A DNA stretch of 42,232 bases from an uncultured Methanosarcinales archaeon. GTDB lineage: Archaea; Nanobdellota; Nanobdellia; Woesearchaeales; JAGWAF01. Where the stretch lies: contig CAZGZA010000002.1 in assembly GCA_964529655.1 (NCBI GenBank), forward strand, positions 10,705 to 52,936, written 5' to 3'. Shown here in pieces: positions 6,367 through 40,682 of this stretch. Within the stretch, counting starts at the first letter, position 1, and each line of letters starts with the position of its first letter. The notes beneath the pieces were generated by a model. That model was not told the origin of the DNA and did no database searches. It was given only the letters and a program-made list of their open reading frames with translations. The position numbers and the translations under genes are program-made.

Positions 6367-6590
6367 ACCGGTTTGAAAGGAACCACATCCGCAAAGAGAT
6401 AGAAAAACTAAAACAGGCTAATACAGCCCTGACATCCGGGCAGGTTGTCTGGCTTTTTCTTGGAGTTTTGGCATCGCCAACCATAATCCTTCCCTATCTT
6501 TGTTATGGCTATATCAAAAAGTATAGCCGGCAAAAAAGCAAAAACCTCGCAACAATGGCCACACTAAGAGAAGAAATCACAAAATCCTAA
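6354..6590 (+). CDS. Hypothetical small membrane protein
   Basis: 78-aa ORF overlapping the alaS stop, with one predicted TM helix (VVWLFLGVLASPTIILPYLCYGY). No recognisable family. Confidence 0.3.
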   Translation: MVKMNRFERNHIRKEIEKLKQANTALTSGQVVWLFLGVLASPTIILPYLCYGYIKKYSRQKSKNLATMATLREEITKS

Positions 6591-8900: not shown

Positions 8901-8945
8901 TATAGTAACTGACATTTTGTCTAAATGTTAAGGTCAGTTACTATA
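8901..8945. promoter_or_regulatory. Third copy of the TATAGTAAC-N-GTTACTATA palindrome
   Basis: TATAGTAACTGAC (8901-8913) pairs with GTCAGTTACTATA (8933-8945). The arm sequence and ~45-bp span match those at 1812-1857 and 28203-28248. Confidence 0.45.
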
Positions 8946-10172
8946 ATTGGTTAATTTAGCCTGTTTTGTCAGTTTGTAAACTAGCTTGCTTTCTTTTAAT
9001 ATTTTGCGTATATCATACCCAAACTTTTTATGAACGAGTATTCTGGCATAGTTAAGCATATAACTCCTGTCTGCGAATTCAATGGGTTTAGTTGCCAGCG
9101 CTTTTCTGATTGCCTCCCGGCATACCCAGACTCCAAGAGGCACTGCATATTCTCCTGTAATAAACCGCAGAACAAGGGATGATGCCTGCTTTTTTAGCTT
9201 TATTAATTTTTCTGCCAGTGGAAGCCTTGCGGCATAATACCCTCCCGAGGTGTTGTTTGCATAGCCCTTTCTGCCTTCATAAGGTTCGTAATCACTAGAA
9301 GATTGTATCTCGCTGGTTTGATTCCATATGGCATTGGGCAGGTATGTTTCAAACAGTTCATACGACCAGATGTCAGGAAATAGAAGTATAAGATAGTAAT
9401 TGCCCAGATACCCGCCAAAATACGAAGTGCATATGTCTATTTTTGTAAAGTTTCTTAAGGTGTTTAGCAGGTTTTTTGCAATTATATCATCTGTTGCGGT
9501 AATGGCCCATCTAGTTGGAACAAGCTTTCTGCTGGCGCCAACACCAACATTGCCAACGCTTAATATCTTTGTTAAAAAGTGTTCATCAAATCCTTTATTG
9601 TAGAGGTATACAAGAGCGTCGGAGGCCCTCCAGTCGATGTCATTAACCACCTTTTCAACCTTTGAGGAAACAAAAGGATTTGAGGTAATTCTTGCCCCCT
9701 CAATAAAGGCGTTAGGGCCCATTGGCGGGAGAATATCATCGTTTCTTACTCTGAAAGATGGCTTGTCCTTAAAGGTTATCTCGACCTCAACAGGTTTTGA
9801 GGCTATCCCAATCTCTTTAGAGATATCCACCAATCCACAGCCGGACTTGATATTGCTTTTGAACAGTGCGTTTATCAGCCCGCTTCTATAAGCGATAATC
9901 TCACTGGAACCGATATTATTAGCAGCCCAAAAGCGTGGCGCATCATACCTCCAGCTTTCTATGTTTACCAATGGCGCTAGTATCCCAACATTAACCAATG
10001 GGTAGCCAAACCTTCCAATAAATGGTGCAGGGGAGCTTGAGGCTAAACATGTTAGTGGTAATCCTTTGTTTATTTTGAATATAGCTTCAGATTTTGCGAG
10101 GATTGGGCAGAACTCTCTTCCGCAGCTTTGTTTTGGGTTTTTGCCTTTGCATTGGATACATGGGATTCTCAT
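8934..10172 (-). CDS. nreA: NreA-like DNA repair protein (archaeal Nre N- and C-terminal domains)
   Basis: The N-terminal Cys cluster is CIQCKGK..CGREFCPIL. LVPTRWAITATDD and EPYEGRKGYANNTSGGYYAARL match conserved Nre blocks as I recall them. Confidence 0.65.
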   Translation of the reverse strand: MRIPCIQCKGKNPKQSCGREFCPILAKSEAIFKINKGLPLTCLASSSPAPFIGRFGYPLVNVGILAPLVNIESWRYDAPRFWAANNIGSSEIIAYRSGLINALFKSNIKSGCGLVDISKEIGIASKPVEVEITFKDKPSFRVRNDDILPPMGPNAFIEGARITSNPFVSSKVEKVVNDIDWRASDALVYLYNKGFDEHFLTKILSVGNVGVGASRKLVPTRWAITATDDIIAKNLLNTLRNFTKIDICTSYFGGYLGNYYLILLFPDIWSYELFETYLPNAIWNQTSEIQSSSDYEPYEGRKGYANNTSGGYYAARLPLAEKLIKLKKQASSLVLRFITGEYAVPLGVWVCREAIRKALATKPIEFADRSYMLNYARILVHKKFGYDIRKILKESKLVYKLTKQAKLTNYSN

Positions 10173-10224: not shown

Positions 10225-11379
10225 ATGGCTGCTTTGAGGAAAATAGCTTCAATTATAGTGTTAACCACTGTTTTTGGATTTGCCAGGTCACAGTTAGACC
10301 CGATTTTATCACCCTATGCCAAGAGCCTTGGCTTTAGCACTTTTCAGATAAGCTTATTTTTTGCGGTTTTCTCTCTTGTGATGATATTAATGTCGCCGCT
10401 TATCGGAAGAATTTCAGATGGCATTGGCAGAAAGAGGGTGATTCTTGCCGGCCTGCTTGCCTCAGCCATAGCTTTAGTGCTTTATACTCTTAGCAGTTCA
10501 TGGATAGTCTTTATCGGTGCAAGAGTGCTGGACGCAATGGGTTTTATGTCTGTGGGGTTAATTGCAATATCCAAGCTTGAGGATGGCATTGATGATAGGC
10601 AAAGAGGTGCATTTACAGGATTTAGCGAAAGCATCAACAGCGTTGGAGCAATACTCGGGCCTTTATTAGGCGGCTTTATAGCTGATTATTATACTGTTAA
10701 GATGCCATTTTTCACTGCAGCATTTATAACATTGCTGCTGTTCTTTTTTGTCTTATTCTGGAAAGAGCCTCCTAAAAGGGCATTGCAGCTGTCAGACATT
10801 AACTTTATTCAAAGCTTAGCCAAATTTCTAAAAATCCGGGAGCTAAGGGCAATAGCTCTCCTTGGATTTTTTATGTACGCAACTATCCCGGTAACATACA
10901 TTTTTATTCCTCTTATGATTGTTGAGGAGTTTCATAAACCTTATTCTTATGTGGGGTATTTTTTAGTGGCATATGTTTTCTTTAACCTCTTCCAGTTTGC
11001 TTACGGTAAAATAAGCGATACCATGGGTCAAACCCCAATCTTAGTCCTTGGCGGGGTTATGAGCGGGATAATACTTATTCTTTACGCACAGACGCCATCC
11101 TTTGGCATTCTGCTGTTGCTAACGCTCGCCAGGTCATTTGCAGACGCCAACTGGAGTGTTACTACCTGGGCTTTCATATCGAAAATAGGTGAAAAAAAGC
11201 AGTTTGAGGGCCAGGTTACTGGTTCATATTACTCGCTTGTTAGAATTGGCTCCTTTTCAAGCTATGCGCTCAGCAGCCTGGTGGTGTTGTATTTTAATGT
11301 GCAGGTGCTATTTGTTTTATACGGGGTGTTGCTGATTGCCGCGGCATTGGTTGCAGAAAGAATGCTTGCAAAAGCGTAA
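10225..11379 (+). CDS. MFS transporter
   Basis: About 12 TM segments and MFS motif A, GRISDGIGRKRVILAG. Confidence 0.85.
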   Translation: MAALRKIASIIVLTTVFGFARSQLDPILSPYAKSLGFSTFQISLFFAVFSLVMILMSPLIGRISDGIGRKRVILAGLLASAIALVLYTLSSSWIVFIGARVLDAMGFMSVGLIAISKLEDGIDDRQRGAFTGFSESINSVGAILGPLLGGFIADYYTVKMPFFTAAFITLLLFFFVLFWKEPPKRALQLSDINFIQSLAKFLKIRELRAIALLGFFMYATIPVTYIFIPLMIVEEFHKPYSYVGYFLVAYVFFNLFQFAYGKISDTMGQTPILVLGGVMSGIILILYAQTPSFGILLLLTLARSFADANWSVTTWAFISKIGEKKQFEGQVTGSYYSLVRIGSFSSYALSSLVVLYFNVQVLFVLYGVLLIAAALVAERMLAKA

Positions 11380-11497
11380 TGGAAACCTTAGCTTTCCATT
11401 TGTATTTTTCGTAACACTTTAGTATTCTGAAGTATGCCAATAAAAATTCTGCTTTTATGAGTACGTACAGGAAAATACTTTCCTCAGTTCCGGTTGC

Positions 11498-11779
11498 CTG
11501 CCTCCCTACTGTAAAATCCGAGATTTTACAGTCCCTCAAATTTGTTCCAAATTTGAGTTGTCTTGGCTTTGCCAAGATTAAATTTTCTCCCCCTCGCTTG
11601 CGCAGGGGGAGAAAATACCTCAAAATCAGAGATTTTGCGGTACTTCAAATTTAGCCAGAACCCTTTCTTGATTTTGAGGTACTGCAAATTTAGCGAAAAG
11701 CTAAATTTGAAGTATAACCCAACTTTGTTCTGAACAAAGTTGAGCAGGGAGGCAGCAGATGAATAATAACAGCAGCAAA
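11498..11779 (-). repeat. 282-bp multi-hairpin element, copy 1 (perfect inverted copy of 18152-18433)
   Basis: Its reverse complement matches 18152-18433 at both ends on direct comparison. The two track ORFs crossing the copies share an identical 85-residue stretch. Confidence 0.9.
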
Positions 11780-11821
11780 GCATTTTTGCTTCAGAAAGCT
11801 GAACAACTACATTTTAACCTG

Positions 11822-12775
11822 CTACAGCTTCCTGATTCTTGCGACATAGAACCCCTCTGTATCATTATCCTGAGGCCAGATTCTAAGCGTTTTGCTTATT
11901 TCATCAGAATACTTTTTGTCCTCAAAAAATAATACAGGAGGAGAGGACTTCAAATGCGGAAGATTAACTTCTTCTATAACCGCGTTATCATGCCTCTTTA
12001 ACAAGAAGTCAACAACGCCCTCATTCTCCTCTGGCTCGAGTGAGCAGGTAGAATAAACCAGAACGCCATCCTGCTTTAAAACCTTAAAGCCGGTCTCTAT
12101 AAGATTTTTTTGGACAAAACTTAATTTTGTCACCATCTTTGGATTCCATGCCTCAATCGTCGACAATGACTTTCTGATTGTACCTGTTCCTGAACAGGGA
12201 GCATCAGCCAAAACATAATCAAATTGTGTTTTGATATTACTAAACCATTGGCCTTGCATTAGTGTGATAATAGCATTTCTTACACCGCACCTTTGCAGGT
12301 TTAAACCAAGCGGCGCAAGCCTGATTCCGATATGGTCATTTGCTATAATAACCCCCTTATTGTTGAGCATCTGCGCAATTTGCGTTGTTTTACTGCCAGG
12401 GGATGCGCACATGTCCAAAATAGCTGGTTCCTCAAACTGTTCATTGTACAATAATGCCAGTGGAGGTATCATAGAAACTGCCTCCTGAACATAAAAATAC
12501 CCTAAGCTGTGCTCCAGAGTGTTGCCGATTGCCTCCTCACGCTTTTCAATCCAAAACCCTTCGTTGCACCATGGAATCTGCTCAAAACCCCATGTCGCAG
12601 CTAGGCGTTTATGCAACCTATCAATCGATGTTTTAAGTGTATTAACTCTTATAGACTTTCTAAGAAAAGCAAGAGAATATTTCTTAAACTCCTCGAATTC
12701 CGTTAATTTGCTGTATCTTGCGATAAACTCTTTTTTGAATTTTAATGATTCTGTTCCAGGTATTGGAGTTAACAT
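11822..12775 (-). CDS. NOL1/NOP2/Sun family RNA (cytosine-C5)-methyltransferase
   Basis: DMCASPGSKT (SAM site), DAPCSGTGTIRK and YSTCSLEPEENE (the two catalytic Cys motifs). Confidence 0.9.
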   Translation of the reverse strand: MLTPIPGTESLKFKKEFIARYSKLTEFEEFKKYSLAFLRKSIRVNTLKTSIDRLHKRLAATWGFEQIPWCNEGFWIEKREEAIGNTLEHSLGYFYVQEAVSMIPPLALLYNEQFEEPAILDMCASPGSKTTQIAQMLNNKGVIIANDHIGIRLAPLGLNLQRCGVRNAIITLMQGQWFSNIKTQFDYVLADAPCSGTGTIRKSLSTIEAWNPKMVTKLSFVQKNLIETGFKVLKQDGVLVYSTCSLEPEENEGVVDFLLKRHDNAVIEEVNLPHLKSSPPVLFFEDKKYSDEISKTLRIWPQDNDTEGFYVARIRKL

Positions 12776-12839
12776 CAGAGCTTTAACAGGATTTTAATAT
12801 TTATAAAATGTTGCTGACAAATAGCACTATTCTATATAT

Positions 12840-13217
12840 CTACTTATCCTGATTTTGTTTTTGGTATTTTATTCCGGTTGCCCTTATTATGTACTCACGA
12901 AACAACCCAAAGAAAGCTCTTTCACCAAAGTATTCCCTGAATTCTACAATCTCATCATATTGTTTGGCGACTGCGTTAAAATTTTTATATGCCACACCCA
13001 TTCCCATCCAAGCAATGGAGATCGCATCAACCCTTATTGGCTCGGCTACAACACCTTTTTGTGTTACATACTGCTCCAGAGATAGCCTTTCCTGCGCGGC
13101 TTTTAGTGCAAGAAAATCTCCTAAACTGCTATTCCAGTGCGGCGCTTTTAGGCATAATGAGTCCCACCACGCACCGATATGCGGCACAAACAGGTTAGCC
13201 CACGTCTTCTCTTTCAT
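12840..13217 (-). CDS. Hypothetical protein
   Basis: 125-aa ORF filling the gap between flanking genes. No recognisable motif. Confidence 0.35.
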   Translation of the reverse strand: MKEKTWANLFVPHIGAWWDSLCLKAPHWNSSLGDFLALKAAQERLSLEQYVTQKGVVAEPIRVDAISIAWMGMGVAYKNFNAVAKQYDEIVEFREYFGERAFFGLFREYIIRATGIKYQKQNQDK

Positions 13218-13271
13218 AAACTCTGGGTATTAACATTAATTATATAAAGCTTTGTTCACTTCTCATGGAAA

Positions 13272-13925
13272 ATGAGAGGGAGCAGTGCTAAAAGTTTGTA
13301 CAAGTTTATTCTAAAGGGTTTTATCGGAAGGAAAAATACAAAAGAATTCTATAACAGGGTTGCTGGCATCTATGAGTCGGCTATGAGCAGCCAACAAAAG
13401 CATGCTACAGAAATTATTGACCGACTTCCGAGAGGAGATATCTGCCTTGATTTAGGCTGCGGTACCGGCCTTTCAACCCTGGAATTAATGACAAAAGCTG
13501 ATTTTACTGTTGGTATTGATTTTTCCAGAAGCATGCTCAATGAGGCAAAAAAGAAGGGATTGGAAAGGCTTATCAACGGAAATATTTTGGAGCTTCCTTT
13601 CAGAAGCAATACAATAGACTGCACCACTGCCATAGGTGTAGTTCGGCATTTGCCTTATGGTTCAGAACAAACCTTCTTTAATGAGATTTATAGAGTTTTA
13701 AAAAAGAATGGTGTATTTATGACACCGGCAGTAAAATACACCTTCTGCAACCGATTGGTTTTAGGGTTGTACGATAAATTCATGAAACTACTAGGCTATG
13801 ATGAACAACTGGCAAGATTTAGTGTAGAAAATTTTAAGATTTTGGGAGAAAATGCTGGTTTTGCCGTTCAAGCTTATCCTTTCAGGGGATTAAGAGACGG
13901 ATTTCTAGTTTATTTCATTAAATAA
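13272..13925 (+). CDS. Class I SAM-dependent methyltransferase
   Basis: Motif I is ICLDLGCGTG. The acidic post-I residue and the LKKNGVF motif are present. Confidence 0.8.
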   Translation: MRGSSAKSLYKFILKGFIGRKNTKEFYNRVAGIYESAMSSQQKHATEIIDRLPRGDICLDLGCGTGLSTLELMTKADFTVGIDFSRSMLNEAKKKGLERLINGNILELPFRSNTIDCTTAIGVVRHLPYGSEQTFFNEIYRVLKKNGVFMTPAVKYTFCNRLVLGLYDKFMKLLGYDEQLARFSVENFKILGENAGFAVQAYPFRGLRDGFLVYFIK

Positions 13926-14007
13926 TCAACAATCTTTGAGCAGATATACAATCAATTCAGCTTTAATCTCCAAAAGATTTAATAAATCAGGATTTTTAGG
14001 ATAGGCT

Positions 14008-14664
14008 ATGGTCTTGTTATGCGGAATTGATGAAGCTGGCCGGGGACCAATCATTGGCCCGATGGTAATGTGCGGCGTAGTTATAGAAGAAAAAGATGAG
14101 CTTAAACTTGCGGCTATAGGAGCAAGAGATTCAAAACTTTTAAGCCCCAAGGCGCGCGAAATAACCTACAAAAAGATTATAGGCATTGTCAAGGATTACA
14201 AGGTTGAAATAATTTCTCCTGAGGAGATAGATGCTGCTTTAAAATCTGCAACCTTAAACCTTAATTGGCTTGAGGCGCATAAAACAGCTGCAATAGTAAA
14301 CTACCTTAATCCTGATAAAGTACTCATGGACTGCCCAAGCCCAAATTGCAGGGCTTACACAAACTATGTTAAACCGCTTATTACAAACAAAAACATCAAG
14401 CTAATAGCAGAGCCGAAAGCTGACGTTAACTACCCGGTTGTTAGCGCTGCCTCAATAATTGCAAAGGTAATCAGAGACCAGCAGATTGAGGAAATTAAAA
14501 AAAGGATTGGCATCGATTTCGGTTCAGGCTATATTGCCGATGAGCGCACGCTTAATTTTGTAAAGGAAAACTATGATGTTTATCCTGAAATTTTTAGAAA
14601 AGAATGGGCGCCGTATAAAAAAGCCATGCAGTCAAAAAAGCAAAAGAGCATTAAGGAGTTTTAA
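14008..14664 (+). CDS. rnhB: Ribonuclease HII
   Basis: GIDEAGRGPIIGPMV plus the DSK and SAASIIAK motifs. Confidence 0.9.
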   Translation: MVLLCGIDEAGRGPIIGPMVMCGVVIEEKDELKLAAIGARDSKLLSPKAREITYKKIIGIVKDYKVEIISPEEIDAALKSATLNLNWLEAHKTAAIVNYLNPDKVLMDCPSPNCRAYTNYVKPLITNKNIKLIAEPKADVNYPVVSAASIIAKVIRDQQIEEIKKRIGIDFGSGYIADERTLNFVKENYDVYPEIFRKEWAPYKKAMQSKKQKSIKEF

Positions 14665-14680
14665 CTGATTTGGACATTTC

Positions 14681-14695
14681 AAAAGGCTTATAAAC
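14681..14695 (+). promoter_or_regulatory. BRE/TATA-like promoter AAAAGGCTTATAAAC for tRNA-iMet
   Basis: It is centred ~28 nt upstream of the tRNA 5' end and is the same word as upstream of 16S. Confidence 0.5.
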
Positions 14696-14718
14696 AACAA
14701 GCAGTTATTTGCGTGCAT

Positions 14719-14793
14719 AGCGAGGTAGGGCAGACAGGAGTGCCCGGGGGGCTCATAACCCCCAGGTCGGTGGTTCAAATCCACCCCTCGCTA
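14719..14793 (+). tRNA. Initiator tRNA-Met (CAT)
   Basis: Hand-folded cloverleaf: acceptor AGCGAGG/CCTCGCT with A1:U72, anticodon arm GGGGG-CTCATAA-CCCCC (a G:C run typical of initiators), T arm GGTGG-TTCAAAT-CCACC. Confidence 0.9.
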
Positions 14794-14933
14794 TTTTTAT
14801 GTTTGTAGTTTGTGGGACTTCATGAAGTGAATGTCCCATTCTTTTTGATCAAACTTTTCGTTAGTTCATGAGCGCGCTCATGAACTAAGCCACGCATGGC
14901 CGTAAAAGTTTGGTGAATATCCACCTCTCGTTA
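14794..14933 (+). repeat. tRNA-iMet trailer cassette ending in a degenerate copy of the tRNA 3' end
   Basis: CCACCTCTCGTTA (14921-14933) matches the tRNA 3' end CCACCCCTCGCTA (14781-14793) at 11/13. It is preceded by AAAAGTTTGGTGAATAT. It contains the module 14814-14860, shared with the tRNA-Pro trailer, and a 28-nt perfect palindrome at 14861-14888. Confidence 0.75.
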
Positions 14934-14981
14934 GTTTCTTTTGTTCCTCAAACAAGAATTAATTAAAATTATAACGCGGAT

Positions 14982-15320
14982 TCATCCGTAACTTTTAGGT
15001 TTTTGGTTGTCTGTATGCAGCTTATCCTTTATTTCGTTTTCAAGGTCATTAAAGGCCTTATGAAGTGTTCTCGCCAAATCCCAATCAACTGCCTTTGTCG
15101 ACTCAAAAATACGTGTTGGCGCAACCAACTTTAGGTGAACGGAAAATTTTTCCCTGCCCCCGCCTTTACTATGCGTTTTAATGTGTACTGTTATTGAGGT
15201 AAAGTTTTTTATGGTGCGTTTTAGCTTTTGGTAGTATTCTGTGGCAAGACTATTAACTGTTTGTTGCTCTTCAGGTTTTAATTCACTCACTCCAATATAT
15301 TGAATGACTTCAGCTACCAT
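14982..15320 (-). CDS. Possible HPF/RaiA-like (S30AE family) ribosome-associated protein
   Basis: About 110 aa from MVAEVIQYIG. The layout ..EEQQTVNSLATEYYQKLKR.. ITVHIKTH.. KFSVHLKLVAP.. STKAVDWDLARTLHKAFNDLENEIKDKLH resembles HPF/YfiA. This is pattern recognition only. Confidence 0.4.
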   Translation of the reverse strand: MVAEVIQYIGVSELKPEEQQTVNSLATEYYQKLKRTIKNFTSITVHIKTHSKGGGREKFSVHLKLVAPTRIFESTKAVDWDLARTLHKAFNDLENEIKDKLHTDNQKPKSYG

Positions 15321-15467
15321 CTTGAAGGTATATTGCAGTTTTTGAGGTTTATATGTTTTACTGATAAGTAATGCCAGACATAAATAACACATAAAATTGT
15401 TATGTTCTGGCAACCTTTAGTAAGCAATTTATTTCATAACTTATTTTTGTCGCTTACTAAAACTTAG

Positions 15468-16886
<1,419 letters not shown>

Positions 16887-16942
16887 TTAATATCACCAAA
16901 CCCTATTTTATGATGTGTTTTAAATATATTTTGATTGGTATG

Positions 16943-17992
16943 TTAGACAACATCTTTCACTTCAGCTTTAAGATTTTCAATGAATCTGCTGAAATCCTTT
17001 TCCTTGACGCTTCCGCCGCAGGCAAACTCATGCCCTCCGCCAAAGCCATCAATGCCTCTTAACGCTATTTCCAGAACTTTTCTTAGGTCTATTGTATTGT
17101 TATCCCCTCTTCTTAAGCTTAGCTTAAACTCATCCCCTTTTTTTCTGCAGATAACCACTATCTTATCCGGATGCAGATAAGAAATTTCATTGGAAAGCCC
17201 GCTTGTGAAGCTGTACCCCTTTTCAGAATAGACAAACAAAACAACTTTCCCATTAATATGGTTCAGCGCTTCATCCCTTAACTTTTCGTAAAGCATGTTA
17301 ATTTTTTCGAAGCGCTTAAAGAGAAATTTACCTTGAGGTGTTTTCTGTTCAAGAATATCTTCTGGAGCGGTGATTCGCGTCAAAATTTTAAGAGAAGCCA
17401 TTACCTCTTTTGTTTTGCCTTTAAGATTAGTTGCAAGGATTGCCACCAATTTTCCAAGCCTGCTTTTATACAGAATATCCCCTGGTTTTTTTAAATCCTC
17501 TCCGATTAGATTGGGGTAATCCTGCCTAAACTCATTTATAAAATGTGGGATATACCAATCGCCAATGCAGCCACATGCCGCTATCCACATATCCTGCTTG
17601 ACTATATCATAACAGACAGCTGTTGGGGGAATTGGCGGGCCATACTGGCGTGTATTAAAATAGGTTACATTCTCCCTTTTTAAGATGTCATGATGGTCTA
17701 GCCATACAACCGGCTTTTTAACCTCATCAATAAAATCCTGTTCAACAACCGCTAAATCCAAAACAAAAATCTTATCCGCATCATAATCCAATACCTTTTT
17801 TGCGTAAATGCTCTTTGTAACGCACGGCGTTGATTTTACGATTATTCCCCTGCCGCGTTTTATAAACCTGTAAAGCAGCAGAAACGAGCACAGGCCATCC
17901 GGGTCGTCGTGGAAAAAGAATATCGGCCTTTTGCTTGTTAAAAGCTCATCCTTTATCTGGCTAATCTGTTCTGCAGGAAGCATAAAAAGCAT
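16943..17992 (-). CDS. DHH/DHHA1 family phosphoesterase (NrnA/RecJ-like)
   Basis: FFHDDPDGLCS, LDHHD and the C-terminal GGGHEFACGG. Confidence 0.8.
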   Translation of the reverse strand: MLFMLPAEQISQIKDELLTSKRPIFFFHDDPDGLCSFLLLYRFIKRGRGIIVKSTPCVTKSIYAKKVLDYDADKIFVLDLAVVEQDFIDEVKKPVVWLDHHDILKRENVTYFNTRQYGPPIPPTAVCYDIVKQDMWIAACGCIGDWYIPHFINEFRQDYPNLIGEDLKKPGDILYKSRLGKLVAILATNLKGKTKEVMASLKILTRITAPEDILEQKTPQGKFLFKRFEKINMLYEKLRDEALNHINGKVVLFVYSEKGYSFTSGLSNEISYLHPDKIVVICRKKGDEFKLSLRRGDNNTIDLRKVLEIALRGIDGFGGGHEFACGGSVKEKDFSRFIENLKAEVKDVV

Positions 17993-18053
17993 AAGAATAC
18001 TGTTATTTAAAAGATTATTGAAAAATAGTACTTATTTAGCTTTCTGAAGTCAT

Positions 18054-18137
18054 AAAAATCCACTGTAGGTGGATTTTTAGGATGCCAAAGACGAGCCAGC
18101 ATCTACACCGTTAAGATAGGGTTTTAGGCTCGTCTTT
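18054..18137. repeat. Two-hairpin element, copy 2 (see 6589-6674)
   Basis: AAAAATCCACTGTAGGTGGATTTTTAGGATGCC followed by AAAGACGAGC..GCTCGTCTTT. It lies 14 nt from the 282-bp repeat. Confidence 0.6.
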
Positions 18138-18151
18138 GTGCATAAAGATAA

Positions 18152-18433
18152 TTTGCTGCTGTTATTATTCATCTGCTGCCTCCCTGCTCAACTTTGTTCA
18201 GAACAAAGTTGGGTTATACTTCAAATTTAGCTTTTCGCTAAATTTGCAGTACCTCAAAATCAAGAAAGGGTTCTGGCTAAATTTGAAGTACCGCAAAATC
18301 TCTGATTTTGAGGTATTTTCTCCCCCTGCGCAAGCGAGGGGGAGAAAATTTAATCTTGGCAAAGCCAAGACAACTCAAATTTGGAACAAATTTGAGGGAC
18401 TGTAAAATCTCGGATTTTACAGTAGGGAGGCAG
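18152..18433 (+). repeat. 282-bp multi-hairpin element, copy 2
   Basis: Perfect inverted copy of 11498-11779. The terminal pairing is GCTGCCTCCCT / AGGGAGGCAGC, with about seven internal stem-loops. Confidence 0.9.
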
Positions 18434-18561
18434 CGGCGGGAGCAGAGAAAATCATTTTTCTGAGGTTACAACACAGAACATTCATCACACTTCAGAATAA
18501 TAAAAGGTTCTGCTAAAACGAAAGGTAAATAAAAGAAATTGTCCACTATAAACAAGGAAAA

Positions 18562-19326
18562 ATGGACAAATTTAAGGTTGCAGCTGCGCAAATAAACCTC
18601 AATCAAACATTTGCGTTGGTGCTGAAGGATATGCTGAACTATATTGACCGCGCCAAGGCAAAGGGGGTTGATATCATCTGCTTTCCAGAATCCTCACTTT
18701 TAGGAGGTGACACAAAGAACAGATGGGCGCTCGGAAAGCTAAGGCAGAAATGTAAAGAGAAAAAGATATGGGTCATTGTTGCCGGACGCGTTCGGGAAAA
18801 GAAGCATGTTTATAACACTGCTTTTTTAATAAATAATCAGGGAAGAATTCACGGAAAACACAAGAAGGTCCACCTTTCTGAATGCCTGACACCCTCACTA
18901 AGAGCAGGTTCGGCATTTAAAGTCTATGACACGCCTTTCTGCAAAATAGGGCTGGCAATCTGCTGGGATGTTGCATTTCCTAATGCAGTTCAGAGCATGG
19001 TTAAGAAAGGAGCAAAGTTAATATTCTGTCCAATGTATTGGTGCTTTGAGGAATGGGTGCACAGGAAAGAGCCTAAAAAGTTCGAGAAAAAGCTTCTCAG
19101 GGCGCTGGTCCTTACAAGGGCGTTTGAAAATCTTGCTTATACTATTGTCTGCAATGCTTATGACCAGAAAAGGCCTGACCTGACTTCATACTCTGCAATA
19201 GCAGAGCCGCACAAGATAATAAGCGAAATTTTCGAAAAAGAGGGTATGATTACGGCTGAGGTTGACCTTAATTATCTTAAGAAAGTAAGAAAGAAGTATG
19301 CAGAAGATTATAACAAGGTTTTTTAA
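18562..19326 (+). CDS. Carbon-nitrogen hydrolase (nitrilase superfamily)
   Basis: The E-K-C triad context is CFPES, HGKHKKVHL and GLAICWD. Confidence 0.85.
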   Translation: MDKFKVAAAQINLNQTFALVLKDMLNYIDRAKAKGVDIICFPESSLLGGDTKNRWALGKLRQKCKEKKIWVIVAGRVREKKHVYNTAFLINNQGRIHGKHKKVHLSECLTPSLRAGSAFKVYDTPFCKIGLAICWDVAFPNAVQSMVKKGAKLIFCPMYWCFEEWVHRKEPKKFEKKLLRALVLTRAFENLAYTIVCNAYDQKRPDLTSYSAIAEPHKIISEIFEKEGMITAEVDLNYLKKVRKKYAEDYNKVF

Positions 19327-20278: not shown

Positions 20279-20349
20279 ACCCACCAGATTTTTAAAAAAA
20301 TCTGGTAAAAACATTGGACATAAAATCTTTGAGATTTTAGTCCAAAAAA

Positions 20350-20680: not shown

Positions 20681-20929
20681 TTTGGAATTAAAGCTGTAGC
20701 GCAGGTTTAATTCCAGCTTTTTACCAGATTTTTACCGAAAAATCTGGTGGTAATCTCCCCAGCCCCAGTTATTTGTTTGTAGTGGGTAATTCTTGGGACT
20801 TCACGAAGTGAATGTCCCATTCTTTTTGATCAAACTTTTCGCCAAAACACTCAAAAATCCATTAAGATTTTTGGTGTCCTAAAAATTCCCGGAATTTTTA
20901 TGAGTTTGGTGAATATCTCCCCAGCCTCA
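20681..20929 (+). repeat. Two tandem tRNA-Pro trailer cassettes, each ending in a copy of the tRNA 3' end
   Basis: ATCTCCCCAGCCCCA (20753-20767, 1 mismatch) and ATCTCCCCAGCCTCA (20915-20929, exact) both match the tRNA at 20666-20680. Confidence 0.85.
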
Positions 20930-20960: not shown

Positions 20961-21758
20961 TTGCAGTCAAATATGGAAGATTATCCCTGTGCTTGTATTG
21001 AGGACAAGATAGATAATACGGATATTACAATTTTGGGGGTTCAGCATGTTGAGCCATTTCTCTTGCAGCATTATTCTTTTTTGCAAAGCCAGATTAATAA
21101 AGCAGATGCAGTAGTTCTTGAACAGGTCGTTGGCGGCTCATCTGTGACAGACAGCTTCTTTGGCCATCTTGCTATGATAGCAATTCCAAAGCCGGTTTAT
21201 GTTGTTGATCCGATTAATACCGCTTTGTTTTTTACTGATAGGGTACTCGGATTTCTTGGATTATGTATAATGTTAACCAGTCCAATGCGTTATGCCACCC
21301 GTTTCGTAGCAAAGAAAGTGTTTAAAGGTAAGGAAAGCAAAAAAGCGCCTACAAGAAGGGAGTTTTTAGGAAGCCTTTTCAAAAGCGCTGCAATATTTGG
21401 TGCAGGAACTTCGCTTTTTTCAGGCAGTCTTAGTTCGCTTTCATTAAAGGATGCTATATCCCCCAATATGGTTTTGAACTATGGTGTTGAAGATGTTTTA
21501 TCGTACGGCTCAATAGACTTTAGGAATATTATAATAGCAGAGGGTTTAAACAAGATTATAACCACACAAAAAGAAAAGAAGATTCTTACTATTCATGGCG
21601 ATGCGCACTCAAAACCTATTCATTATTATTTAACGCACCCGGCTTTTAGAGCTAAAAAGCTTGCTTACCTGCCATTTGCGCTGATATGCCGGAATGAGAT
21701 TAAGAAATACCAGTTTATGGGATTTGACTGGAGAATGGAGGCGACATTACCATTCTAG
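20961..21758 (+). CDS. Hypothetical protein, possibly TraB/GumN-like
   Basis: DITILGVQHVEP near the N-terminus and TIHGDAHS near the C-terminus weakly recall the TraB/GumN family. The likely true start is the ATG at 20973. Confidence 0.35.
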   Translation: MQSNMEDYPCACIEDKIDNTDITILGVQHVEPFLLQHYSFLQSQINKADAVVLEQVVGGSSVTDSFFGHLAMIAIPKPVYVVDPINTALFFTDRVLGFLGLCIMLTSPMRYATRFVAKKVFKGKESKKAPTRREFLGSLFKSAAIFGAGTSLFSGSLSSLSLKDAISPNMVLNYGVEDVLSYGSIDFRNIIIAEGLNKIITTQKEKKILTIHGDAHSKPIHYYLTHPAFRAKKLAYLPFALICRNEIKKYQFMGFDWRMEATLPF

Positions 21759-23526: not shown

Positions 23527-24545
23527 ATACTAGCATTAGAGGGAGTTGACAAGAATAACGCAGACTTGCTGATTAATGCTATAATAGTAAGCAAGTCTGC
23601 GGAATGTACAAGAATGACAAACAATCCATTAATAAATATTGATAAAATCAAGAGCAGGATTTATACTATTAGAAGCCTACAAGTAATGCTCGATGCAGAT
23701 CTTGCAGAGCTTTATAATGTAGAGACAAAAACATTAAATCAAGCAGTTAAAAGAAACAGTGAAAGATTTCCAAAAGAGTTTATGTTTCAAATAGCTCAAG
23801 AAGAGTTTGATAATTTGAAGTCACAATTTGTGGCCTCAGGTGCAAAAGATTTAAGGTCACAAAATGTTACCTTAAAAAACAGAAGAGGGCATCACCGGAA
23901 GTATCTTCCATATGTTTTTACAGAGCAGGGAGTTGCAATGCTTTCAGGAGTCTTAAAAAGCAACACTGCGGTAAAGATAAGCATACAAATAATGAGCGCA
24001 TTTGTCGCAATGAGGCAGTTTATCTATTCAAATGCCCAAATATTTTATAGGTTAAATGTTGTAGAAAAAAAGCAAATAGAATATGACAATAAATTTGATG
24101 AAATATTCGATGCCATACAAAGCAAAGATATAGTCCCTGAGAAAGGAATATTTTTTGATGGGCAGATATTTGATTCATACCAATTTGTTTCTGGCTTAAT
24201 TAGAAGCGCTAATAAGTCCATTATCCTTATTGATAATTATATAGATGATTCTGTATTGACTCTATTCAGCAAGAGAAATAAAAATGTGCAAGCCACTATA
24301 TTCACTAAAGAGATTTCCAAGCAATTAGCTCTTGATTTAACCAAATACAATTCACAATACCCATCAATCGAAGTAAAAGAGTTTAAACAGTCGCATGATA
24401 GGTTTCTTATAATAGATAATAAGGATGTTTACCATTTTGGGGCATCATTAAAAGATTTAGGCAAAAAGTGGTTTGCATTCTCAAAATTTGACAGGGAAGC
24501 AGTTAAGCTGCTGGATAAGCTGGGGTTGAAATGAAAGAGGGGTAT
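23527..24545 (+). mobile_element. Candidate inserted cassette carrying an ORF6N-domain gene, bounded by duplicated glycosyltransferase 3' ends
   Basis: It is flanked by the direct repeats 23411-23526 and 24546-24658. No integrase or transposase is present. Confidence 0.45.
23614..24534 (+). CDS. ORF6N (KilA-N-like) DNA-binding domain protein with a C-terminal PLD-like degenerate HKD region
   Basis: IRSLQVMLDADLAELYNVETKTLNQAVKRNSERFPKEFMFQ is the ORF6N signature. The C-terminal HDRFLIIDNKDVYHFGASLKDLG resembles an HxK-x4-D...GS motif with K replaced. I placed the start at MTNNPL. Confidence 0.7.
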   Translation: MTNNPLINIDKIKSRIYTIRSLQVMLDADLAELYNVETKTLNQAVKRNSERFPKEFMFQIAQEEFDNLKSQFVASGAKDLRSQNVTLKNRRGHHRKYLPYVFTEQGVAMLSGVLKSNTAVKISIQIMSAFVAMRQFIYSNAQIFYRLNVVEKKQIEYDNKFDEIFDAIQSKDIVPEKGIFFDGQIFDSYQFVSGLIRSANKSIILIDNYIDDSVLTLFSKRNKNVQATIFTKEISKQLALDLTKYNSQYPSIEVKEFKQSHDRFLIIDNKDVYHFGASLKDLGKKWFAFSKFDREAVKLLDKLGLK

Positions 24546-28152: not shown

Positions 28153-28199
28153 TTCCCCCGTATGTTAATGGGCAGATTGCTTTTATAAAATTATTGTTG

Positions 28200-28281
28200 T
28201 TTTATAGTAACAGACGTTAATTTTTATGTATAATCTACTGTTACTATATTCGGCAGGCATAATCTATTTGTATAATTACTT
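28200..28281 (-). promoter_or_regulatory. 82-nt conserved element upstream of smc (paralog of 1809-1890)
   Basis: The inverted repeat is TATAGTAACAGAC..CTGTTACTATA at 28203-28248. A TATA-like TTTTATAAAA lies between it and the smc ATG. Confidence 0.55.
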
Positions 28282-28389
28282 CAAAAAGCCGAAAGCTCCG
28301 CACTTTAGTACTGAGATGAAAGCTTTTTGAAGTTTAAAAATGCGAACGTTGAAGCCACGCACTTTAGTGTACAGATAGTTCGCATTTTT
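28279..28389. other. Two tandem stem-loops with a shared loop motif CGCACTTTAGT
   Basis: CTTCAAAAAGC/GCTTTTTGAAG spans 28279-28332 and AAAAATGCGAAC/GTTCGCATTTTT spans 28336-28389. Both ~30-nt loops contain CGCACTTTAGT. Confidence 0.5.
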
Positions 28390-28529
28390 TTTATTTATGT
28401 CTGCCGTGATAGTAAGCGACAAAAATAAGCCATAGGATAAATCGCTTACTATTTAAGGTACAGTAATACAAAAACTTTTTAAACTATCTTTTTATAGAAG
28501 CGCAAAGAATACCTTAATCGCTTTAAAAA

Positions 28530-31704: not shown

Positions 31705-31824
31705 TGGGCCCACGGGGATTTGAACCCCAGACCTTCGGCTTTCCTAGCGCCGAAAGCGGCCGTATAAGACCGACGCTCTAACTGCCCGAAAGTTTTAGCT
31801 TCCTCCAGGCTGAGCTATGGGCCC
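31705..31824 (-). tRNA. tRNA-Ile (TAT) with two introns (D-loop and canonical 37/38)
   Basis: Removing 31782-31804 (23 nt) and 31741-31762 (22 nt) gives a 75-nt cloverleaf, GGGCCCATAGCTCAGCCTGGTTAGAGCGTCGGTCTTATAAGCCGAAGGTCTGGGGTTCAAATCCCCGTGGGCCCA. The anticodon loop is CTTATAA. Confidence 0.7.
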
Positions 31825-40417: not shown

Positions 40418-40467
40418 AAAAGCCTATAATTCGCCTGATTTTTTAAAAGTTTAGATATTTTGGCGTT

Positions 40468-40619
40468 ATTGAAAAGTTCAGTTATCGCGCCTGCTCTGTC
40501 CAAGCTAATGCTTGGATAATTTCTTTCTCCCCGCACAGGTGAGGGGAGAAAGAAATTAGTCTGCAAGACCAAAGCAGGCTGGACAGGTATAACCAAGAGC
40601 AATACAACCGCTTTTCAAT
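40468..40619. other. Hairpin-rich intergenic segment closed by ATTGAAAAG/CTTTTCAAT (candidate structured RNA or repeat)
   Basis: It contains CCAAGC-TAAT-GCTTGG and a perfect 15-bp stem, AATTTCTTTCTCCCC (40518-40532) / GGGGAGAAAGAAATT (40543-40557). The latter is similar to the TCTCCCCC hairpin inside the 282-bp repeat. Confidence 0.35.
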
Positions 40620-40682
40620 GTCGCCGATATTTTAGAATTATATCCGACCAAATTCTTCGGGCGGCAAAAAATTTTCTTTCCC

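Follow-up and report, generated by a model that had tools for sequence, protein, structure and literature searches.

Identical inverted copies of a non-coding hairpin-array element flank a 6.4-kb housekeeping gene block that appears inverted relative to its nearest relatives in a woesearchaeal genome

The locus described here raises the question of whether a short non-coding repeat has turned round a group of archaeal housekeeping genes and, if so, by what means. The DNA that we analyzed (hereafter the window) is a stretch of 42,232 nucleotides from an uncultured archaeon, which is named as a member of Methanosarcinales and placed in Woesearchaeales by the GTDB lineage (GenBank assembly GCA_964529655.1, contig CAZGZA010000002.1, positions 10,705 to 52,936). 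The window carries archaeal tRNAs and, at its end, an archaeal 16S rRNA gene, and the homologues of its Nop2 protein, where an organism is given, are mostly labelled Woesearchaeota or Nanoarchaeota. To our knowledge, DPANN archaea have very small genomes and few recognizable mobile elements, and we know of no cultures for the study of recombination in them. A preliminary description of the window, made by reading its sequence, had reported a pair of exact 282-bp inverted repeats around 6.4 kb of genes and had proposed that the repeats serve as recombination substrates that flip the segment. In this study, we therefore examined the repeat pair, the order of genes around it in relatives, and the repeat element itself.

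A base-by-base comparison bore out the repeats: the left core (11498-11779, +) is the exact reverse complement of the right core (18152-18433, -), with 282 of 282 positions identical, and chance cannot account for a perfect match of 282 nt. A repeat search of the window returned slightly longer inverted arms (11498-11787 and 18144-18433; 290 nt, 99% complementary), and the first mismatches beyond the core are at 11780, 11781, and 11784. When the 282-nt unit was compared with the window by blastn, two full copies were found, and the remaining matches were self-hits of its internal palindromes and chance matches below 25 bits. The identical 85-residue stretch pointed out previously in the translations of the two ends does exist, in the open reading frames (ORFs) 11526-11783 (-) and 18136-18405 (+), but these frames are spurious and merely cross the repeat. 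We rejected the 85-residue ORF as a gene, as homologous elements elsewhere do not have it. Since homologous elements do not conserve the ORFs that cross it, the 282-nt unit is regarded as non-coding.

The 6372 bp between the two cores (11780-18151) contain seven complete protein genes and a tRNA gene. Their order is an RsmB/F-Nop2 methyltransferase (Nop2; 11822-12775, -), a hypothetical protein of 125 amino acids (-), an S-adenosylmethionine methyltransferase (+), RNase HII (+), tRNA-Met (+), a hypothetical protein of 112-143 amino acids (-), purA (-), and a DHH/DHHA1 protein (DHH; 16943-17992, -). Outside the block lie Nre (8934-10172, -) and a transporter of the MFS family (10225-11379, +) on the left and a CN-hydrolase (18562-19326, +) on the right. 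Pfam assigned these genes, including the purA product as adenylosuccinate synthetase, and ARAGORN called the tRNA as tRNA-Met(CAT). The named genes of the preliminary list were thus recovered, but the label "HPF-like" given there to the 112-143-residue ORF had no support from Pfam.

To see how these genes are arranged elsewhere, we compared the window with loci of relatives, of which two to three lineages, with 64-76% protein identity, were informative. In the loci L001 and L082, a hexapeptide-transferase gene (-) is followed by Nop2 (+) and then CN-hydrolase (+), with 47 bp between Nop2 and CN-hydrolase; in L001, RimK (-) comes next. The locus L094, which belongs to the same metagenome-assembled genome as L001 (GCA_053532575.1), has the order Nre (-), MFS (+), and DHH (+), with a 40-bp spacer, and in L091, L092, and L093 (from GCA_053531995.1 and two Logan assemblies) the C-terminus of MFS is followed after 37 bp by DHH (+), then by purA and rnhB. 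In the window, these adjacencies are swapped: the neighbor of MFS is Nop2, and that of DHH is CN-hydrolase. When 11780-18151 is turned round, both adjacencies of the relatives reappear, and therefore both breakpoints lie within the two repeat copies. Judged from these junctions, the block appears to be inverted with respect to its nearest relatives, and the opposite-orientation junctions support the earlier proposal that the repeats are substrates for recombination flipping it. The orthologous junctions in L094, L092, L001, and L082 are free of the element, since their spacers (37-47 bp) are too short to hold it.

The inversion disrupts no gene or promoter; for example, the block upstream of DHH (TTAAA.AACA..AGTATT) remains joined to DHH, and that upstream of CN-hydrolase to CN-hydrolase. 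Because whole genes move together with their own upstream regions, the inversion is probably neutral. GC skew, which the preliminary description had suggested as a check, was also calculated; it follows the coding strand alone and is silent on the orientation of the block.

Homology between the two repeat copies does not end with the perfect core. The left outer flank (11418-11491, +), which contains TTTAGTATTCTGAAG, is homologous to the right outer flank (18439-18504, -; TTTATTATTCTGAAG), with 52 of 74 columns identical between 11418-11491 and 18504-18439, a score reached by 1 of 2000 shuffles. The left inner flank (11783-11815, +; CTTCAGAAAGCTGAACAACTACATTTT), which ends 6 nt before the Nop2 stop codon, is homologous to the right inner flank (18022-18056, -), with 29 of 35 columns identical, a score reached by none of 2000 shuffles. 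The weaker similarity that had been noticed outside the core is thus significant. The right outer flank stops just short of a block upstream of CN-hydrolase, AAAACGAAAGGTAAATAAA, which is conserved in the relatives and begins directly after the flank. Between core and inner flank, the right copy has about 93 nt of its own (18057-18151, -), which form two hairpins (CAAAGACGAGCC...GGCTCGTCTTTG and AAAAATCCAC...GTGGATTTTT). The complementary 8-mers TTCTGAAG (outer) and CTTCAGAA (inner) are subterminal in all four flanks, which hold four of their six occurrences in the window; as to which outer flank was originally paired with which inner flank, complementarity beyond these 8-mers was uninformative.

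The flanks of the two copies are thus about 70-83% identical, as against 100% in the core. This step in identity, from about 75% to 100%, points to older copies that have undergone gene conversion, which may be a continuing process or may have taken place in the tract of the crossover itself. On the sequence evidence, neither a fresh duplication nor a one-step replicative transposition would be expected to give such a step. The perfect identity had previously been ascribed to very recent copying or gene conversion; the diverged flanks agree with that statement and fit conversion in older copies.

These results suggest that homologous recombination between two inverted copies of the element, together with gene conversion, explains both the repeats and the flipped block, and we hold this explanation to be fairly probable. 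A non-coding, lineage-specific hairpin-array element would have been acquired twice in inverted orientation, with one copy at the junction of MFS and DHH and the other at the junction of Nop2 and CN-hydrolase, the copies being about 400 and 480 bp long. General homologous recombination of the RadA type, with no dedicated recombinase, would then have swapped the inner flanks and flipped the 6.4-kb block, and gene conversion between the copies, possibly the crossover's own tract, would have made the 282-nt cores identical or would keep them so.

The same geometry, in which identical inverted copies surround a segment that is itself inverted and the target site is empty in relatives, would be expected from one-step replicative intramolecular transposition, in which a resident copy inserts into the second junction and creates the inverted copy and the inversion at once. 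Inversions by IS26, Tn3, and Mu likewise leave two identical inverted element copies around the segment. However, identity stops sharply at 282 nt, short of the ends of homology, which extends further with an identity of 70-83% and an indel of 93 nt. Since neither junction holds an element in the relatives, two insertions are required anyway. The element also has neither clear terminal inverted repeats nor clear target duplications: no target-site duplication was found at the edges of the 282-nt core, the reverse-complement target duplications of the IS26, Tn3, and Mu type are not evident, and no transposase is encoded in the window. Transposition in one step is therefore improbable in our judgment.

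Recombination between inverted repeats is a well-known source of inversions, as with rrn operons, inverted insertion sequence (IS) copies, tufA/tufB of Salmonella, the flip-flop of the chloroplast inverted repeat, and the isomers of Halobacterium pNRC100. The window resembles these classical cases in its long identical inverted repeats, in breakpoints that lie inside the repeats, in the probable concerted evolution of the repeats by gene conversion, in the absence of a dedicated recombinase, and in the movement of whole genes without disruption. By contrast, the repeat is a 282-nt non-coding hairpin array and not a gene, an rRNA operon, or a recognizable IS, the host is a DPANN archaeon with a small genome, and the inversion is read here from one contig orientation.

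A segment between inverted repeats is also a feature of the programmed switches Hin/Gin/Cin and FimB/E and the Bacteroides invertons, whose repeats of about 10-40 bp are located beside an invertase gene and serve to invert a promoter or the alternative ends of genes. In principle, the palindromic hairpins of the present repeats could be protein-binding sites, and a site-specific recombinase acting within them would toggle expression, as in an inverton or shufflon. Pfam scans of 30 proteins from across the window, however, revealed no recombinase, resolvase, integrase, or transposase, and thus no serine or tyrosine recombinase in the 42 kb. The 282-bp repeats are about 10 times longer than typical inverton repeats, and the segment consists of eight housekeeping genes, each complete and accompanied by its own upstream region, with no promoter, alternative coding ends, or alternative segments being exchanged. 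A programmed switch is not the reading that we favor, and we consider it very improbable.

Perfect repeats also affect how a contig is assembled. A graph of the form A-R-B-R'-C should fit either orientation of B unless reads span the 282 bp, and the alternative orientation is that of every informative relative. Both copies may therefore be real while the true genome has the orientation of the relatives, the block having been misplaced or one path having been picked from a mixed population. A tentative direct repeat of 5 bp (11816-11820 and 18505-18513), which reads AACCT in the orientation of the element, agrees with this, as it lies at the outer end of the right copy and the inner end of the left copy. 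It was seen for this combination only, which equals one intact copy in the orientation of the relatives; AACCT may be a target-site duplication or may be due to chance. On the other hand, the contig continues through both repeats, for which assemblers usually need support from read pairs or long reads, and 282 bp is within reach of ordinary paired-end inserts. The contig shows no other sign of chimerism, and synteny with L001 runs on for about 10 kb to the right of the block. An assembly ambiguity thus seems unlikely to us, although the chance of it is appreciable.

From these comparisons, we infer recombination with gene conversion as the mechanism and the contig orientation as the true one. 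Several points weigh against this. A short-read assembler can place the block either way between perfect 282-bp repeats, and the orientation in the contig may thus be arbitrary, while the sharp edges of the core could mean that a 282-bp mobile unit was recently inserted into similar contexts. The lineages that inform on gene order are only the two to three mentioned above, at 64-76% protein identity; 50 further Woesearchaeota loci at 51-62% Nop2 identity had no synteny and were uninformative. In addition, in L083 (76% identity; Logan SRR22388287) an unrelated gene that the window lacks lies convergent to Nop2 at 1195-1296 and overlaps its stop codon, and the neighborhood is therefore prone to rearrangement. 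The 3' junction of Nop2 differs in at least three ways within the clade. A look-up of the window proteins and of the cluster containing the window Nop2 found no strain variant on record with the opposite block orientation; the nearest Nop2 match in the databases is 76% identical, and they hold no strain-level relative.

With recombination and gene conversion as the favored reading, the locus would be a clean sequence-level example, from a DPANN archaeon, of a genome rearrangement mediated by repeats, in which a short non-coding repeat can reshuffle the order of housekeeping genes and gene conversion acts on the repeat. In practical terms, the orientation given to a block in a metagenome assembly is unreliable where such repeats are present. 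The mechanism is ordinary; the repeat element is previously undescribed and belongs to an under-studied archaeal lineage. A search of the literature on inverted repeats in Woesearchaeota and on MITEs (miniature inverted-repeat transposable elements) in DPANN archaea found no description of it.

On either strand, the predicted fold of the 282-nt unit is a multiloop with about seven near-perfect hairpins, which is closed by a 10-bp stem (CTGCCTCCCT/AGGGAGGCAG), with a 24-nt tail 3' of this closing stem. The minimum free energies of the two strands were -128.9 and -133.3 kcal/mol (z -11.3 and -9.9), and none of 100 shuffles was as stable. In the left copy (all +), the 5' arm of the closing stem (11498-11507) is followed by the hairpins H1 (11508-11532), H2 (11535-11557), H3 (11560-11578), and H4 (11582-11616), the last being a CTCCCCC/GGGGGAG hairpin. 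An internally duplicated H5/H6 module (11617-11715), H7 (11720-11742), the 3' arm of the closing stem (11746-11755), and the tail (11756-11779) complete the unit. The closing stem, a candidate for terminal inverted repeats, sits at the 5' edge of the core and 24 nt inside its 3' edge.

The H5/H6 module of about 100 nt is made of variants of H1 and H2. It contains a 25-nt direct repeat (11631-55 and 11670-94), spaced 39 nt apart. Within it, segment A (11618-27) pairs perfectly with A' (11670-79) and B (11641-55) with B' (11700-14), and therefore either two local hairpins with one mismatch each or an interleaved, pseudoknot-like pairing is possible.

With a stem of at least 9 bp and a loop of 3-12 nt, the window has 21 perfect hairpins, as against 0-5 in shuffled sequence; all 21 lie in intergenic DNA, which makes up 16% of the sequence, and 10 of them lie in the two repeat copies. 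Neither copy matched an Rfam 15 model at its gathering score. The best match below threshold, snoR136 (30 bits, gathering score 43), was discarded as noise caused by generic hairpins. No match to the element plus its flanks was found by blastn in phage and plasmid collections.

In the stretches 11749-11779 and 18152-18182, the 3' arm of the closing stem also contains a GGAGG resembling a Shine-Dalgarno sequence, and an ATG 6 nt further on opens the reading frame MNNNSSK in the tail, an arrangement that resembles a sequestered ribosome-binding site. As a regulated small ORF, this feature (11749-11762) is probably spurious: only seven codons are in the repeat, the ORFs that begin at this ATG diverge past the repeat (57 versus about 31 amino acids), and L001 has no equivalent ATG.

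Next, we asked whether the element has homologues. L001, the contig of the closest relative (Nop2 76% identical), holds a shorter one (about 695-880), which lies in the spacer upstream of Nop2 and thus at a locus other than those occupied in the window. Its architecture is that of the window unit without the H5/H6 module of about 100 nt, and its predicted fold has a z of -8.4. The two are identical in the arms of H4 and over the 27 nt of H2 and its flanks. Elsewhere the sequences differ with pairing preserved: H1 and H3 show five double compensatory changes and no broken pair, and over the 29 pairs of H1-H3 pairing is 100%, as against 22-48% in controls slid by 1-3 columns. Direct reading of the sequences added three compensatory pairs in the closing stem (GCC.../...GGC in the window, CAA.../...TTG in L001), which brings the total to eight in a comparison of two distinct sequences.

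To find more diverged members of the family, we used a covariance model built on H1-H4 and also scanned for the H4 motif. The two perfect cores each scored 138.8 bits. A third, strongly diverged member was found in the window at 40452-40636 (+; 29 bits, E 2e-4, z -7.5), where an 18-bp outer helix with two U·G pairs encloses three hairpins, one H3-like (TCCAAGC/GCTTGGA), one H4-like (TTTCTTTCTCCCC/GGGGAGAAAGAAA), and one more. It sits between a Rad50/SMC-like gene (start 40417, -) and a small acidic ORF. L001 yielded a second member at about 9900-10159, and the more distant L027 has a miniature version. The family therefore has two identical copies and one diverged copy in the window and two in the 10 kb of L001, and its hallmark is a YCTCCCC-loop-GGGGAGR hairpin. 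Both L001 copies share a 21-nt leader, GCTGTCAACTTAAGTGACAAA (668-690 and 9915-9938), which is itself a small hairpin and is not found in the window copies.

Scans with exact patterns recovered no family members, whether with a 25-mer of the internal repeat in GTDB genomes, JGI metagenomes, and IMG/VR, with H2 in IMG/VR and JGI metagenomes (where the seven metagenome matches were unrelated single hairpins), or with H4 in IMG/VR. From these scans, the family appears to be narrow, or else too divergent for exact patterns.

The window thus points to a previously undescribed family of intergenic hairpin arrays that evolve through compensatory changes, for which RNA genes, terminator or insulator modules, and mobile DNA are candidate roles. 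An RNA is not proven by the compensatory changes, because these preserve RNA, single-stranded DNA, and palindromic DNA sites equally, and both strands fold about equally well. Weak hints favor the plus orientation, namely the G·U pair by which H3 is closed, which is conserved in four members, and the two U·G pairs in the outer helix at 40452-40636.

MITEs, REP/BIME, pneumococcal BOX, ERIC, and Correia elements are similar to the present element in that they are short, non-coding, intergenic, and strongly self-complementary, occur in several copies per genome, and are present or absent at orthologous sites of relatives. As in BOX, with its variable number of boxB copies, the hairpin modules vary, the window unit having the H5/H6 module and the L001 homologue lacking it. 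Unlike these elements, the present one lacks convincing terminal inverted repeats and target duplications, and neither a cognate transposase nor a RAYT gene was seen in the window. Its fold is a multi-branch star of 3-7 distinct hairpins within a closing helix, as opposed to a single long hairpin, and whereas MITEs decay, its copies differ by compensatory changes, which are more typical of a selected structure. The element is thus not demonstrably a MITE; in its modularity, its closest counterparts are structured repeats of intergenic DNA, for example BOX or REP/BIME, although its multi-branch architecture and its compensatory evolution are unusual.

A further-reaching possibility is that the hairpin arrays represent a new class in Woesearchaeota or DPANN archaea, either of structured non-coding RNA or of elements mobilized as single-stranded DNA. 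The YCTCCCC-loop-GGGGAGR hairpin within a multi-branch fold would be its hallmark, selection would maintain it through compensatory changes, and the pair in the window would be held identical by ongoing conversion and would flip the 6.4-kb block to and fro within the population. We regard this combination as doubtful, with a rather small chance of being right.

Other parts of the window are also rich in hairpins. The 377-bp spacer between SMC and Cdc48 (28153-28529; z -5.1) has a closing stem (CGGCAGGCATAA/TTATGTCTGCCG) around two 12-bp hairpins, both with CGCACTTTAGT in their loops, and more long hairpins on either side; it had no detectable homology to the 282-nt unit. In L001, the position orthologous to the spacer upstream of SMC holds a member of the family. 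Near-identical palindromes, ACCAGATTTTT...AAAAATCTGGT, occur at 20283-20306 and 20723-20748, about 43 nt downstream of tRNA-Gly (-) and tRNA-Pro (+), respectively, and similar AAAAATCC...GGATTTTT palindromes at 6584, 18053, 20880, and 31588. These palindromes look like bidirectional terminators composed of a hairpin and oligo-T.

Between a glycosyltransferase gene and SMC, a gene at 23566-24534 (+) encodes a 322-residue protein with an ORF6N (KilA-N-like) domain, which is frequent in viral or mobile contexts. L001 has no counterpart of it between the gene for a 265-residue protein (20961-21758 in the window) and SMC. Finally, the Rfam tRNA model matched 120 nt at 31705-31824 (-) with 47.8 bits; this match, which ARAGORN did not call, is probably an intron-containing archaeal tRNA.

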